In this document: positions 15,520 to 20,798 of the stretch, in pieces
Layout: every line of letters starts with the position of its first letter
Numbering within the stretch: the stretch's first letter is position 1
Assembly: GCA_950097145.1 (NCBI GenBank)
Contig: CATNCF010000010.1
Location: forward strand, 536 to 64,535
Length of the DNA: 64,000 bases
Reading direction: 5' to 3'
Source: an uncultured Lachnospiraceae bacterium
Lineage (GTDB): Bacteria; Bacillota; Clostridia; Lachnospirales; Lachnospiraceae
Notes under the pieces: generated by a model
What the model was told of the DNA's origin: nothing
The model's input: only the letters and a program-made list of their open reading frames with translations
The model's database searches: none
Made by a program: the position numbers and the translations under genes

Positions 15520-15783
15520 ATGAGTCAGGCAAAAGTAGACCGTTATAAAAATGAAAAAGCAAACCGCAAGAAGAATATGAAAAAGCAGAAAGCAAAAAAC
15601 GCTATCGCCGCAGCCTGCGGTACCGTGGTATGTATCGCAGTAGTGGGCTGGATAGGCTATTCTGCCTATGGATATTTCCGCACAGGAGATGATAAAAGCA
15701 CTCCAACACAGACAGAAGTAAATCTGGATGCCCTCAGTAATTATATCAGCACACTGCACACTTCAGACAGTACGGCTGAGTAA
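15520..15783 (+). CDS. Small basic membrane-anchored hypothetical protein
   Basis: AAGGAG RBS; Lys-rich N-terminus, one TM helix. Confidence 0.75.
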   Translation: MSQAKVDRYKNEKANRKKNMKKQKAKNAIAAACGTVVCIAVVGWIGYSAYGYFRTGDDKSTPTQTEVNLDALSNYISTLHTSDSTAE

Positions 15784-15792
15784 TCTTTTAAA

Positions 15793-15900
15793 GCACAGGG
15801 GCTGTTGCAAAACGAGAGATTTCTACACGATATGGTACAAATTCTTTTGCATTGTTACGATATCGTGTAGAATTCCTGTATTCTGCAGCAGCCCCTGTGC
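15793..15900. repeat. 108-bp long imperfect hairpin between convergent genes
   Basis: GCACAGGGGCTGTTGCA ... TGCAGCAGCCCCTGTGC outer arms plus TTCTACACGATAT ... ATATCGTGTAGAA inner arms. Confidence 0.75.
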
Positions 15901-15999: not shown

Positions 16000-16626
16000 T
16001 TACCAGACAGACAGGGAATCCTTTGGATTCTCATCTTCAAATTCAAACACGCACCTCTCGTATGCGTTGATGATATGAGTATCTTCATATTTATCATACC
16101 GCTTATAGCATCTGCCATATGTCAGATGCACATGTCCATGAAGAAAATATTTCGGACGGTATTTCTCCATCAGGGTACGGAATACCTGAAATCCCTGGTG
16201 CGGCAGATCACGGCCGTCGTTCAACTGATAAGCCGGCGCATGGGTCACTAATATGTCGAATCCGCGTTTTCGAAACAACTGAAACTTCAGTTTTGACGCC
16301 CTCTGTTTCATCTGCCAGTCTGTATACTGATATTTTCCTGAGTTGTACCGCATAGAGCCTCCAAGCCCCAGAATCCGCACACCCTGATAGACATAAATTT
16401 GATCTTCAATGCAGACGCAGCCGTCTGGAGGGGAATCGTCATATTTTCCGTCATGGTTCCCATGCACATATAACACGGGGACAGAAGAAAGGGTCACTAA
16501 AAAGGAAAGGTAATTGGGATCCAGATCTCCACAGGAGATAATCAGATCAATACCCTCAAATATTCTCTTGTCAAAATATTCCCATAAATACTTGGATTCT
16601 TCATCTGCAATTGCCAGTATCTTCAT
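16000..16626 (-). CDS. Calcineurin-like metallophosphoesterase
   Basis: ADE, CGDL, HGNHD, THAP, HGHVH metal-binding motifs. Confidence 0.9.
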   Translation of the reverse strand: MKILAIADEESKYLWEYFDKRIFEGIDLIISCGDLDPNYLSFLVTLSSVPVLYVHGNHDGKYDDSPPDGCVCIEDQIYVYQGVRILGLGGSMRYNSGKYQYTDWQMKQRASKLKFQLFRKRGFDILVTHAPAYQLNDGRDLPHQGFQVFRTLMEKYRPKYFLHGHVHLTYGRCYKRYDKYEDTHIINAYERCVFEFEDENPKDSLSVW

Positions 16627-16633
16627 GGTAGGA

Positions 16634-18550
16634 TCAGCCTTCCTTTTTCTTTACTCCCTGCTGTTTCATCACAGGTTCCGCCTGCTCTTTTAACTCTTCC
16701 TTAGGCGGAATAACGCCCACAACATTTTCTGCAAGCCAGTCCATGGTCATAATCTCTTCCGGCGTCAAGCTAAGATCGGGATCATCCAGAACCACCCCCG
16801 TCTGGGAATATAAAATTCCCGCAAAAGGATTAAACGTCTCCGCACTGATAGAAGTTTTCAAAAGCCCTGCCAGCCGTTTCAGCCCAATGGGAAGATACTT
16901 GGAGAAAACCACGTCCACCACGCCTTCTGACATTCCCCACCAGTAATTAATCGCCTTTTTCACCGGAGCGTCGTCATCATATTTCCAGGTCCCGTCCATA
17001 ATAGTCCAAATCAGCCGCTCATAAAACTTGCCCCAATGCCACAGAGGCATTGCAAAATTCCTGAGCCGTCCCTCATTAATATGGTAAATGCCAAAAAACC
17101 GGGAAGCCTCCTCTGGAATCGTCATATCCTTTCCTGATACACAGGAAGAACCAATTTCCCGGATCCGCTCCTCAATATCCATCTCTTTCTTGGCGGACCA
17201 TTCCAAATACACCTTTGAACGGGGATTAATCATCTTTGCACCCAGAGCAAAGGCATTGATATTTGCAATCGATCCATAGATGGGATAATCCGCAATGTAA
17301 GTCAGACGGTTATTCTCCGCCATAGCCCCTGCAATAGCTCCTACTAAAAATTTTGCCTCATACATCCGGGAATAATACGTGCGAATATAGCGGTGGGAGG
17401 TATTCAAGGAACAATTTAAAATACGAACCTTTGGATTGGCAATGGCTGCCTTCACACTGGCCTGTGCAAAAGGAGGCGTTGTAGTAAAAATCAAATCACA
17501 TCCTGCATTCACAGCGTCTTCCAATAAGGAATCTATATTTTCCCTGGTTCCATTTTCATAGGTCATGGTATGTACCTCATCTGGAAAGGTCTGTTCCAGA
17601 TGAAGCCTGCCCAGCTCATGGGCATAGGTCCATGCTGAAGTCCCGGGGGTTTTCTCATAGATAAATGCAATCTTCAGCTTCCGCGTCCCGGGAGCATGCA
17701 GATGCAGAATGCTGAACAATGATTTTTTCTTCTGGTTCGGTTTCATTTTCAAATCAATTTCTGATTCCTGTCCCAGAAGCATAAACTCCTCCCAGCTCTT
17801 TGTAATCAACGTCTGCATTTCCCTGGTGGTTTTCTGATCAATGGCGTCATATCCATACAGGGTAATAAAGGCCAGAAATGCATCCCCCGGCGCAATTTTC
17901 AGCTTATCTCCGCCTTTTTCCTGATATTGCGAAGTAAACCTTGCGTAAATAGAACTGAACTTCAGAAGTTCTTCCTCTGACCACCGTTCCTCCGGCTCTT
18001 TCCCCACGGCCTCCTGCAGTTTCGCATACCCGCCCTCCTGGGTAAACCAGATATAATTAATGGGTGCATATTGATAGAAATCCAGAAATTCATAATACAT
18101 CTTATTTTCTTTTTCCTGGGTGCGTTTGGGGATAATACGGGTGACAGTTCCCAAAATTGACACAGCCCCGGAATATTTCATTACACTGACTCTTTTATTG
18201 CCCTCCACCACATAAAATTTATGCATATATTCATAAGCCTTAATAGGTTCACGGATTCCCTCTTCCACATGGGAATCCAGCAGGTTCCCCCATTTAACGG
18301 CAAATTCTGTATCTTCCCGCAGGATCGGCATAAAATTTCCAGCAAAGGAACTGCTTCTTGCGAAGGTCTTTGTCCCCGCAATCTGCTCGATTGGAATCTG
18401 CACCAGGCCAATGGGAGTCTCAGAATAAGAACTCCTGTCCGGCAGAATATCATCCAGCACCTGCAAGATGGGTTTCGCTCCCCGGAGCAGCCGCATTTGA
18501 TAATCCTTCTTCCCTAGTTTCAGCGCCTTCCTGTATTCTTCTTTGCCCAT
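16634..18550 (-). CDS. Cytoplasmic fusion: N-terminal ParB/Srx-like domain + C-terminal BMP/PnrA-like ligand-binding domain
   Basis: PIKAYEYMHKFYVVEGNKR (ParB-fold GxxR); C-terminal half KIAFIY...SAWTYAHELGR, DLIFTT, YEAKFLVGAIAG, INAFALGA typical of BMP proteins; no signal peptide or lipobox. Confidence 0.75.
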   Translation of the reverse strand: MGKEEYRKALKLGKKDYQMRLLRGAKPILQVLDDILPDRSSYSETPIGLVQIPIEQIAGTKTFARSSSFAGNFMPILREDTEFAVKWGNLLDSHVEEGIREPIKAYEYMHKFYVVEGNKRVSVMKYSGAVSILGTVTRIIPKRTQEKENKMYYEFLDFYQYAPINYIWFTQEGGYAKLQEAVGKEPEERWSEEELLKFSSIYARFTSQYQEKGGDKLKIAPGDAFLAFITLYGYDAIDQKTTREMQTLITKSWEEFMLLGQESEIDLKMKPNQKKKSLFSILHLHAPGTRKLKIAFIYEKTPGTSAWTYAHELGRLHLEQTFPDEVHTMTYENGTRENIDSLLEDAVNAGCDLIFTTTPPFAQASVKAAIANPKVRILNCSLNTSHRYIRTYYSRMYEAKFLVGAIAGAMAENNRLTYIADYPIYGSIANINAFALGAKMINPRSKVYLEWSAKKEMDIEERIREIGSSCVSGKDMTIPEEASRFFGIYHINEGRLRNFAMPLWHWGKFYERLIWTIMDGTWKYDDDAPVKKAINYWWGMSEGVVDVVFSKYLPIGLKRLAGLLKTSISAETFNPFAGILYSQTGVVLDDPDLSLTPEEIMTMDWLAENVVGVIPPKEELKEQAEPVMKQQGVKKKEG

Positions 18551-18607
18551 AGATCTCCTCCTGTTTCCTTTCTATCTTCCATATGTCCAAGATACTCCCA
18601 AAGATTT

Positions 18608-19819
18608 TTACAAATTTGTCCTCACCAGCTTCGGTTTATAGCCTTTGGCTTCCAATGCGTCCATAATCTGAGCTTTGTGCTCTGCGCCAAAAGCTTCCAT
18701 AGTAATCCGAAGTTCCACGGCTGCATTCCGGTTGGTGGTGACAAACTGATTATGCTCCAGCTTAATCACGTTCCCCTGCTGCACAGCAATGGTATCTGCA
18801 ACCTTGCTCAGTTCTCCCGGCTTATCCGGCAGAAGCACTGATACAGTAAAGATACGATCTCTGAAAATCAGTCCCTGCTGCACCACGGAGGACATAGTAA
18901 TCACATCCATGTTGCCGCCGCTTAAAATAGATACCACCCGCTTCTGCTGCACATTCAGGTGACGCAGAGCTGCAACTGTAAGAAGTCCGGAATTCTCCAC
19001 TATCATCTTATGGTTCTCCACCATATCCAAAAACGCAACGATCAGCTCGTCATCTTCCACTGTAATAATCTCATCCAGATTTTCCCGGATATATGGGAAA
19101 ATATTTTCACCTGGAGTCTTTACCGCCGTACCGTCTGCAATAGTGCTGACGCCTGGAAGCGTCACCACTTTCCCAGCCTCAAAGGACGCCTGCATACAGT
19201 TTGCACCTGCCGGTTCCACGCCAATCACTTTAATTTTGGGATTCAGCAGCTTTGCAAGGGCTGAAACTCCTGTGGCAAGCCCGCCTCCGCCGATGGGAAC
19301 CAGAATGTATTCTACCAGGGGAAGTTCTTTGAAAATCTCCATGGCAATGGTGCCCTGTCCCGTAGCAACTGCAAGATCGTCAAAAGGATGAATAAACGTA
19401 TAACCATGTTCTTCGGCTAATTCATATGCCTTATTGCATGCCTCGTCATAGACATCGCCATATAATATCACCTCAGCCCCATAAGATTTGGTGCGGTTTA
19501 CCTTAATCAGCGGCGTGGTAGTAGGCATTACGATAGCTGCCTTCACTCCAAAACATTTCGCCGCATAGGCGACGCCCTGGGCATGATTTCCCGCAGAAGC
19601 GGTAATAAGTCCCCGTTCCCGTTCTTCTTCGGTCAAAGTGCTGATCTTATAGTAAGCGCCCCGCACTTTATAAGCTCCCGTAAACTGCATATTTTCCGGC
19701 TTCAGATATACCTTATTTCCCGTCTGTTCGCTTAAGAAATCACTGTATACCAGCTTCGTTTCCAGCGTTACTTCCCCAACAATCCTGCTTGCCTCCTCAA
19801 ATTTATCCAATGTCAGCAT
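18608..19819 (-). CDS. ilvA: Threonine ammonia-lyase with C-terminal ACT domain
   Basis: LKPENMQFTGAYKVRGA, ASAGNHAQG, PIGGGGL, SGGN, LPDKPGEL; start moved to MLTLDKF. Confidence 0.92.
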   Translation of the reverse strand: MLTLDKFEEASRIVGEVTLETKLVYSDFLSEQTGNKVYLKPENMQFTGAYKVRGAYYKISTLTEEERERGLITASAGNHAQGVAYAAKCFGVKAAIVMPTTTPLIKVNRTKSYGAEVILYGDVYDEACNKAYELAEEHGYTFIHPFDDLAVATGQGTIAMEIFKELPLVEYILVPIGGGGLATGVSALAKLLNPKIKVIGVEPAGANCMQASFEAGKVVTLPGVSTIADGTAVKTPGENIFPYIRENLDEIITVEDDELIVAFLDMVENHKMIVENSGLLTVAALRHLNVQQKRVVSILSGGNMDVITMSSVVQQGLIFRDRIFTVSVLLPDKPGELSKVADTIAVQQGNVIKLEHNQFVTTNRNAAVELRITMEAFGAEHKAQIMDALEAKGYKPKLVRTNL

Positions 19820-19853
19820 CTTTCTCACTCTCCTGTTCTTTCCTCTATTTTGA

Positions 19854-20798
19854 TCACTGCGCAGTCTCTTCCTCTCTGGAGAACAATGCATTGACAAACT
19901 GCTCCGAATCAAATTTCTGCAGATCATCAATGGTTTCACCTACTCCAATGTATTTCACCGGAATGCCCATTTCAGACTGGATGGCAACTGCAATTCCGCC
20001 TTTTGCAGTTCCGTCCATTTTAGTCAAAATAATGCCCGTAATATCTGCCACTTCTGAAAACTGTTTCGCCTGTGCCAGAGCATTTTGGCCTGTGGTTCCG
20101 TCCAGCACTACAAGGGTCTCCCGGAATGCATCCGGATACTCTTTTTCCAAAATGCGGTGGATTTTCTTAAGCTCCTCCATAAGGTTCTTTTTATTATGCA
20201 GCCGCCCCGCCGTATCACAGAGCAGTACATCCGCATTTCTCGCCTTTGCCGCCGCCACAGCATCATAAACCACAGAAGCCGGGTCGGCTCCCTCCTGTCC
20301 GCCAATCATTTCCACGCCTGCCCGATTTGCCCACTCACTGAGCTGTTCCCCTGCCGCTGCACGGAAGGTATCTGCCGCTGCAAGCACCACTTTTCTCCCC
20401 TGATCCTTAAGTTTCCCGGCAAGCTTGCCCACAGAAGTGGTTTTTCCCACGCCGTTGACCCCGATCACCAATACCACGGATTTCTCCTGTTCGAACCGAT
20501 ATGCAGTTTCTCCCACATCCATCTGTTCCTTAATGCTGGCAATCAAAAGTTCCTTGCAGGCCCCAGGTTCCTTGATATGCTGTTCCTTCACCTTCTGTTT
20601 TAAATTCTCAATAATTTCAGTGGCGGCATGGACTCCCAAGTCTCCCATAATCAGAATCTCTTCGATTTCTTCGTAAAACTCTTCGTCAATACTGGAAAAC
20701 CCGCTGAAAATAGAATCAATGCCTGAAACAATATTGTCTCTTGTCTTGGTGAGTCCCTGAACCAGACGCCTGAAAAATCCCTTCTTTTCTTCTGCCAT
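19854..20798 (-). CDS. ftsY: SRP receptor FtsY
   Basis: [31 protein letters not shown]. Confidence 0.97.

Follow-up and report, generated by a model that had tools for sequence, protein, structure and literature searches.

A cytoplasmic ParB/Srx-DUF4032-like-BMP fusion protein of gut Clostridia, paired with a metallophosphoesterase and mis-annotated as a transporter binding protein

A two-gene operon whose long protein is annotated as a transporter component

We analyzed a 64,000-nucleotide stretch of DNA from an uncultured Lachnospiraceae bacterium (assembly GCA_950097145.1, contig CATNCF010000010.1; hereafter the window), in which two adjacent genes on the minus strand encode a 638-residue fusion protein and a 208-residue metallophosphoesterase (MPE). 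The fusion gene (16634..18550, stop codon included) was defined from its open reading frame (ORF) and translation, and it is preceded by a GGAGG ribosome-binding site (18557..18561, minus strand) read from the sequence 6 nt ahead of the ATG. Its product joins a ParB/Srx-fold core, a helical DUF4032-like domain, and a BMP domain. The MPE gene (16000..16626, stop codon included) has its own ribosome-binding site, a GGAAGG (16638..16643, minus strand, likewise read from the sequence) that lies within the last codons of the fusion gene. The junction is TGA-tcctacc-ATG, a gap of 7 nt, with the MPE start codon at 16626. An earlier sequence-only reading of this DNA had described both ORFs and their spacing as we find them. 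Together the two genes make up a single, translationally close-coupled operon.

The database name of the long protein describes something else. A sequence search returned more than 7800 homologs of the fusion, nearly all of them full-length among the 120 listed, and NCBI labels them "BMP family ABC transporter substrate-binding protein." In the 638-residue protein Pfam recognizes Bmp alone (residues 292–452, 60.1 bits against a cut-off of 24.1), and none of the NCBIfam models matched in a family scan. Direct reading of residues 1–40 counted 16 charged side chains and found neither Cys nor a hydrophobic run; the protein therefore has no lipoprotein signal. The annotated neighbors within 10 kb of the pair include ilvA, ftsY, smc, rnc, plsX, thyA, folA, an AEC-type transporter, ilvB, and ilvN, and no ABC transporter gene was found among them. 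The five BPD_transp_2-type permease genes of the source genome all lie on other contigs (C28, C41, and C46). Searching that genome (82.8% complete) with the fusion as query found the fusion gene in single copy and detected no ordinary BMP lipoprotein. The sequence-only reading had proposed a cytoplasmic BMP domain with neither a lipoprotein signal nor a linked ABC permease or ATPase, and had suspected mis-annotation; all of this is upheld. We conclude that the label of transporter binding protein is wrong and that the protein is soluble, cytoplasmic, and mis-annotated.

The phosphoesterase is inherited with the N-terminal domains across phyla

From the short junction, the sequence-only reading had coupled the fusion protein to the phosphoesterase. 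We found that this coupling is real and deeper than one locus could reveal. In Lachnospiraceae, a close MPE homolog adjoins the fusion gene in 29/30 loci, a set in which identity between fusion proteins falls as low as 47%; the conserved partner is the MPE. Across twenty neighborhoods of 12–18 kb, nothing was conserved beyond the pair other than antisense shadow ORFs inside both genes. When 201 Lachnospiraceae genera were sampled, the fusion (E <1e-100) was present in 70 genomes and the MPE ortholog in the identical 70. Since genomes that share ancestry do not count as independent, we treat this co-occurrence as a pattern and not a statistic. In three of these genomes the fusion and MPE genes are on separate contigs, and in one they are separated by 3.6 kb.

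The pairing extends to relatives that have no BMP domain. We searched 400 genomes of the window's phylum with the N-terminal half of the fusion protein and recovered weak matches (E 1e-8 to 6e-4). Apart from one short form of 127 residues, these lie in BMP-free ORFs of 306–344 residues that carry the motif DGNHR. The MPE adjoins the ParB gene in 16/29 loci of this search, and 14 of these 16 are among the 15 full-length standalone ParB_N-DUF4032 genes, where the MPE ortholog sits directly upstream and is 38–49% identical to that of the window. In a set drawn from named genomes of other phyla, the MPE adjoins the standalone gene in 74/80 loci spanning more than 10 phyla, mostly represented by uncultured metagenome bins (Limnochordia, Peptococcaceae, Desulfobacterota, Atribacterota, Anaerolineae/Thermoflexia, Bipolaricaulota, Thermotogaceae, Methylomirabilota, Caldisericota, Fusobacteria, one actinomycete, and one Bathyarchaeia bin). 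Among the six exceptions, several look like artifacts of contig ends or ORF calling. Clustering of all ORFs in those loci left ParB-DUF4032 and the MPE as the sole families in common. Gene order is inverted in the window (fusion, then MPE) relative to the standalone loci (MPE, then ParB). Natural single polypeptides with the architecture MPE-ParB-DUF4032-Usp also occur (P0354, P0363, P0385, and P0393), and their domain order matches the ancestral gene order. Because adjacency, co-inheritance, and fusion combine, the fusion protein and the MPE act as a unit. We conclude that the ParB-DUF4032 core and the MPE constitute an ancient module spread over many phyla, of which the window holds the gut-Clostridia version.

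Some loci depart from the simple pair. One Lachnospiraceae genome carries, on another contig, a second fusion copy that spans two TGA codons and is adjoined by MPE fragments (G006, C25:1070-3210); this copy may be a pseudogene or a case of recoding. Another (G160, C24/C26) has two full-length fusion paralogs and only one MPE match, which reads through one TGA. In Limnochordia-like Bacillota, the pair is flanked upstream by a conserved protein of 106–110 residues (25 loci), with an N-terminus of approximately KGRWTRPTDKSAVY, and downstream by nth (27 loci). A 119-residue ORF that is MazG-like by eye only recurs in nineteen loci; in the Chloroflexia locus L142 it sits directly upstream of the MPE. 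These associations with nth and with the 106–110- and 119-residue ORFs are lineage-specific.

The N-terminal half adopts a predicted ParB/Srx fold followed by a DUF4032-like helical domain

The sequence-only reading had assigned a ParB/Srx fold to the N-terminal part on the strength of a motif, which is present in the translation as EPIKAYEYMHKFYVVEGNKRVSV. The fold is confirmed by the comparison of predicted structures that had been proposed alongside it. We modeled residues 1–290 with AlphaFold2 (AF2) from alignment A1, which holds 31 N-terminal halves (the window's protein and 30 homologs), and obtained a mean predicted local distance difference test score (pLDDT) of 88.5. The ParB/Srx-fold core (approximately residues 40–145; 18116..18433, minus strand) scored above 90, and the stretch that follows it (approximately residues 146–264; 17759..18115, minus strand) is all-helical. 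In a Foldseek search of the PDB with this model, the significant hits were all of ParB/Srx fold (Noc, KorB, ParB, Srx, SbnI, and PadC), and those with E ≤1e-3 were ParB, Noc, KorB, or Srx only, with probability 1.00 (Noc at 6e-5). The ParB matches include complexes with CDP and CTPgammaS, the sulfiredoxin (Srx) matches are to the plant and human proteins with a TMt of up to 0.65, and the core of Staphylococcus aureus SbnI superposes with a root-mean-square deviation (rmsd) of 2.8–3.1 Å over 91 columns. On the modeled structure, we place the window's N-terminal domain in the ParB/Srx (ParB-CTPase) fold superfamily.

Conservation within the family picks out the expected nucleotide-binding elements. 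Two blocks are invariant in A1, one reading G59-T60...R65...F69...F73-x-P75 and the other E116-G117-N118-K119-R120. The GxxR P-motif (Box II) falls in the second block as G117-N-K-R120: all 31 sequences keep G117 and R120, whose conservation in a wider alignment of 126 is at least 95%, and the same holds for K119. EGNKR thus reads as an intact GxxR phosphate motif of a predicted nucleotide-binding domain. With ParB/Spo0J, Noc, KorB, and PadC the family shares the fold, the GxxR P-motif, a Box I-like block with a conserved Arg, and the habit of fusion to lineage-specific domains (Kaljevic et al., PNAS 2025, PMC12704722). It lacks the PF02195 match, the helix-turn-helix (HTH), the C-terminal dimerization domain, the ParA partner, and the conserved Box III of canonical ParB, and it also differs in its motif ([D/E]GN[H/K]R in place of GERR) and its obligate MPE partner.

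Sequence profiles connect the fusion to its standalone relatives. On its own the N-terminal half is nearly silent: a Pfam scan of the 31 members gave chance hits only, with no PF02195 and no HTH family, a profile of this half found zero hits among PDB sequences, and the DUF4032 model (PF13224) did not match the window's protein. The standalone proteins are more legible. Pfam returns sub-threshold ParB_N and DUF4032 for some and above-threshold DUF4032 for others, with PF02195 reaching E 0.0064 at best, under its cut-off; a Protein Atlas look-up of one placed it with ParB_N+DUF4032 clusters. NCBIfam has zero models that match the standalone ParB-DUF4032 proteins, the MPE fusions, or the kinase-DUF4032 proteins considered below. 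Comparison by hhalign matched A1 to A2, an alignment of the standalone relatives, at 98.5%, and to A4, a 23-sequence multi-phylum ParB_N-DUF4032 alignment some of whose members pass the PF13224 cut-off, at 99.2% (E 1.2e-19, residues 23–229), the match extending through the helical domain. The N-terminal half of the fusion is accordingly classed, by profile comparison, as a divergent member of the ParB_N-DUF4032 family.

A profile of the wider family found only Spo0J/ParB, SbnI, and SerK among PDB sequences, SerK and SbnI at the marginal E of 0.4–0.9. It aligned the family's DGnHR with ParB GERR and with SbnI D58-G-V-H-R, so that the position of SbnI Asp58 is D across the wider family and E116 in the window's protein. 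Literature searches on DUF4032 turned up nothing relevant, no publication on the family came to light, and the ParB-fold survey with its supplements mentions neither BMP, DUF4032, nor a phosphoesterase (PMC12704722). Because the Pfam ParB_N model does not match it, the ParB_N-DUF4032-BMP family is missed by PF02195-based surveys, which is probably why it is absent from that survey of ParB-CTPase fusions.

The BMP domain has a remodeled pocket and is one of several interchangeable C-termini

The C-terminal half contains a complete, cytoplasmic BMP/PnrA-type domain (periplasmic binding protein type I; residues 289–615; 16706..17686, minus strand). A PDB sequence search aligned both lobes of Brucella 3s99 (E 1.9e-30) and of AtzT (6pi5, E 3.1e-28) to this stretch. 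The guanine site of AtzT comprises the stacking residues Tyr45 and Trp194, hydrogen bonds from Ser97, Glu165, Asn218, and Asn220, and Asn169 in the second shell (PMC6834077). We mapped this pocket through the HMMER alignment and not by structure (chain index + 5 gives the published numbering, checked on Ser97-Phe98) and read the corresponding columns in 126 diverse full-length fusion homologs. Tyr45 corresponds to W307 (W in 116/126) and Ser97 to position 358 (Ser or Thr in 98/126), and these are the only AtzT purine contacts that the fusion retains, as W307 and T/S358. Glu165 is replaced by G426 (G in 96/126), Asn169 corresponds to N430, a variable position, and neither Trp194 nor Asn218 has a counterpart, each falling inside a 5-residue deletion.

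The window's BMP domain thus keeps the stacking aromatic and Ser/Thr358 of its solved relatives but differs from them in being cytoplasmic and fused, in lacking a lipoprotein signal or transporter, and in the change of Glu165 to Gly426. The mapping suggests a cleft that is conserved within the family, yet is not the purine site of the nearest solved relatives. With most of the AtzT contact residues altered or lost to deletion, the ligand should not be taken to be a nucleoside or purine. The premise of the sequence-only reading that the domain would bind nucleosides is not supported, given the changes at Glu165, Trp194, and Asn218, and on the same changes we rejected the analogy with AtzT as grounds for a purine or nucleoside ligand.

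The BMP domain occurs at this position in Lachnospiraceae and in a single further family of their class. After the ParB-DUF4032 core, Desulfobacterota have an Lrp/AsnC ligand-binding (RAM) domain in its place, Anaerolineae and others have one to several Usp domains, and Limnochordia-like Bacillota have Cys-rich, ferredoxin-like (Fe-S-like) tails. Further add-ons are α/β hydrolases of the dienelactone-hydrolase/AXE1 type and GH13 amylase-family domains; an identification of the latter as GlgE proper was rejected, since the matches are weak and generic to GH13. We conclude that BMP is one of several interchangeable, lineage-specific add-ons, among which BMP, RAM, Usp, and the Cys-rich tails look like sensors.

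The partner is a small phosphodiesterase-like enzyme

The 208-residue protein matches Pfam Metallophos at 43 bits (cut-off 21.5). In an alignment of 23 orthologs drawn from both architectures, fusion and standalone, the invariant residues are D8, G33-D34, G56-N57-H58-D59, H129, H143-x-G-F, and H163-G-H165-x-H167. Its AF2 model has a pLDDT of 92.6, and Foldseek placed MPPED2 (E 1.6e-9), TT1561, Dbr1, and purple acid phosphatases nearest, while a sequence profile against the PDB found Dbr1, MPPED2, and LpxH. The fold and motifs II–V are common to the window's MPE and to MPPED2, TT1561, and Dbr1 (Foldseek E 1.6e-9 to 1e-6), but identity is only 13–19%, the motif-I His is missing, and H143-x-G-F is an additional invariant element. 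TT1561 was considered as an ortholog and set aside, being structurally alike but absent among the sequence-profile hits; a literature search on it found nothing relevant. From its motifs and model, we regard the MPE as a small phosphodiesterase-like enzyme of calcineurin-like fold that is predicted to be catalytically equipped. All of the module MPEs tested, the window's and its orthologs, match the PADLOC candidate model PDC-S10 (40–60 bits). The fusion protein matches no PADLOC model, and because it matches no defense model we take the PDC-S10 match as a lead only.

Other features around the pair

The sequence-only reading had read meaning into the position directly downstream of ilvA. That gene (TIGR01127) does lie 57 nt upstream of the fusion gene here, but it adjoins the pair in only 2/30 loci in the adjacency check and 3/21 in the neighborhood comparison, and only the pair is conserved. 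Neither ilvA nor thyA/folA is conserved across loci, and we rejected both as functional context. The listed ilvA ORF (18608-19939, minus strand) has a GTG start and overlaps the end of ftsY (19854-20798) by 86 nt. Its TIGR01127 match begins at residue 61, and the homologous ORF in another locus (L165) begins MDELTLEKFEEA, resembling by eye the stretch MLTLDKFEEA at Met41; the true start may be Met41, near 19819.

Approximately 100 nt past the MPE stop codon is an imperfect palindrome of 108 nt (15793..15900, minus strand) with two 50-nt arms that are 78% complementary. Folded as RNA it has a predicted energy of –61.2 kcal/mol (z –9.7); it is not followed by a T-run, and its inner 13-mer is unique in the window. 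It may be a 3′ hairpin of the operon, a stabilizer, a terminator, or a palindromic element, and its membership in the module is uncertain. The 900-nt gap between the MPE gene and thyA also contains an 87-residue ORF on each strand (15520-15783, plus and minus).

Discussion

We tentatively favor a reading, to which we give somewhat less than an even chance, in which the ParB/Srx domain performs an NTP-dependent phosphotransfer, the MPE processes the product, and the BMP domain gates the reaction (NTP, nucleoside triphosphate). The ParB/Srx domain would use an NTP for phosphoryl transfer in the manner of its relatives SbnI, SerK, and sulfiredoxin, to an acceptor that would be held with the help of DUF4032. 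The MPE would then hydrolyze the phosphorylated product or a nucleotide-derived intermediate. Closure of the BMP domain on a small cytoplasmic ligand, probably not the purine of its nearest relatives, would set the activity. A bolder reading, in which the module is a widely distributed and previously unrecognized writer/eraser phosphorylation system built on a non-classical kinase fold, with a metabolite or protein as target and BMP, RAM, Usp, and Fe-S domains as interchangeable sensors, is a possibility that we consider rather doubtful.

Two lines of evidence lean toward phosphotransfer. First, the strong DUF4032 matches of Actinomycetota lie C-terminal to a Kdo/WaaP protein-kinase-like domain (PF06293 + PF13224) in 7/7 proteins examined. 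These proteins resemble the fusion in having DUF4032 straight after an NTP-using domain and differ in that the N-terminal fold is protein-kinase-like, not ParB/Srx, and no MPE adjoins. A kinase fold in the position of ParB is the pattern expected if both N-terminal domains do equivalent jobs, and we take it as a hint. Second, the family shares with SbnI and with SerK of Thermococcus a DGxHR-type motif, an acidic residue at the position of the catalytic Asp58 of SbnI, and a helical domain after the core. From SbnI, SerK, and sulfiredoxin it differs in its marginal sequence similarity and its C-terminal domains, and none of the three is known to have an MPE partner. Together, the domain swap and the SbnI/SerK-type [D/E]GxxR motif favor phosphotransfer without proving it.

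As a side observation, Kdo/WaaP-kinase-DUF4032 proteins of approximately 400–520 residues were present in 20/101 sampled Actinomycetota genomes and, among the controls, in Corynebacterium glutamicum; they represent a second DUF4032 architecture.

Several observations weigh against phosphotransfer. No MPE lies within 1.5 kb of the actinobacterial kinase-DUF4032 genes; the MPE therefore tracks ParB and not DUF4032, which weakens a simple kinase/phosphatase parallel. Asp58 and Glu20 are both needed for SbnI kinase activity, in the account that PMC9641203 gives citing Verstraete et al. 2018, and the second of these has no clearly conserved counterpart in the family. ParB Box III (ENxxR) is not conserved, its consensus EKENxIYYEF varying and several A1 members lacking the E-N; this box is often missing in orphan ParB-like proteins (PMC12704722). 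ParB/Srx folds also include pure NTP switches and nuclease-like proteins, and specificity is not predictable from sequence (PMC12704722). Of the five signature motifs of the MPE (DxH, GD, GNH[D/E], H, and GHxH), II–V are invariant, while motif I (DxH) keeps Asp8 and has its His in 0/23 orthologs; because every aligned member lacks this histidine, the metal site is atypical. Given its remodeled pocket, the BMP domain could be a scaffold instead of a sensor. Finally, the hydrolase and GH13 add-ons are equally compatible with a regulatory module and with a kinase.

Ranking next after phosphotransfer, and possible in our view though not probable, is a switch in which the MPE is the output, with a cyclic or linear nucleotide as one possible substrate, and ParB-DUF4032-sensor is an NTP-dependent regulatory subunit set by a ligand, with no phosphotransfer by ParB. 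The MPE is the better conserved partner across phyla (38–49% identity, against 26–29% for ParB), its catalytic motifs II–V are invariant, and its nearest structure, MPPED2, is a nucleotide phosphodiesterase. Usp, RAM, and BMP are classic small-molecule sensors, MPE-ParB-Usp fusions occur, and the best-known ParB-fold proteins are switches (PMC12704722). What speaks against such a regulated phosphodiesterase is that the P-motif is of the DGxHR type, which SbnI and SerK have as kinases, and not of the GERR type of the CTP switches, that the Box III used by ParB switches for hydrolysis is not conserved, and that the hydrolase and GH13 add-ons are not sensors. We judge the remaining alternatives less likely than this one.

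It is unlikely that the protein is a ligand-gated, DNA-binding ParB-like transcription factor or DNA clamp with LacI/PurR-like logic. LacI-family regulators also contain the type I binding-protein fold, and the Foldseek alignments to Noc, KorB, and ParB span 225–240 columns, reaching the HTH region. These long alignments, however, have rmsd values of 14–19 Å and TM-scores of 0.22–0.24, no gain over the core of approximately 90 residues, and Pfam HTH families occur in 0/31 members. SbnI combines kinase activity with DNA-binding regulation (PMC9641203), but DNA binding would leave the obligate MPE partner and the hydrolase and GH13 fusions unexplained.

We find still less to recommend a nucleic acid–processing or anti-phage pair, in which a ParB-like nuclease and an Mre11/Dbr1-like phosphodiesterase would act on DNA or RNA. 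The PDC-S10 matches of the module MPEs, the presence of Dbr1 among the nearest structures, the nth gene or 119-residue MazG-like (by eye) ORF that flanks the pair in some lineages, and a genomic position that varies within Lachnospiraceae would all fit. Yet the long protein has no PADLOC match, is single-copy, and is present in a third of genera, its gene and that of the MPE being exactly co-inherited. Its flanks are ordinary housekeeping genes that are not conserved, and the RAM, Usp, and BMP add-ons suggest metabolism. A search of 2.9 million viral contigs (IMG/VR) gave only 15 hits, on which basis we also rejected a phage origin of the module.

A free amino acid kinase in the manner of SerK and SbnI, with the Ser/Thr-related substrate that the sequence-only reading drew from ilvA, is very improbable. 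The P-motif does resemble those of SbnI and SerK, ilvA is 57 nt away in the source genome, and the AsnC/RAM add-on of Desulfobacterota shows that amino acids matter to some members, but ilvA is a neighbor in so few loci (2/30 and 3/21), with the pair alone conserved, and SerK and SbnI are matched at E 0.4–0.9 only. The database view, that this is the BMP-family substrate-binding protein of an ABC transporter, has a Pfam Bmp match above cut-off and the agreeing NCBI name and is effectively refuted by the absence of a signal peptide and lipobox, the 288-residue cytoplasmic-type half ahead of BMP, the lack of ABC genes within 10 kb with the genome's BPD_transp_2 permeases on other contigs, the conserved MPE partner, and the changed pocket residues.

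The ParB-CTPase fold has been recognized only recently as a general NTP module. The family described here escapes Pfam-based surveys though it is found in about a third of the sampled Lachnospiraceae genera, and reading it correctly would mend a systematic mis-annotation across thousands of gut genomes. Strict pairing and natural fusions mark the fusion protein and the MPE as a functional unit, the function of which would give the ParB/Srx fold a new activity or regulatory logic; a functional assignment of the module would give DUF4032 a function as well. The exchange of a ParB/Srx for a protein-kinase-like domain ahead of DUF4032 offers a concrete hypothesis. If the writer/eraser reading holds, the Lachnospiraceae form would be a kinase that is gated by a ligand and common in the gut of humans and animals.

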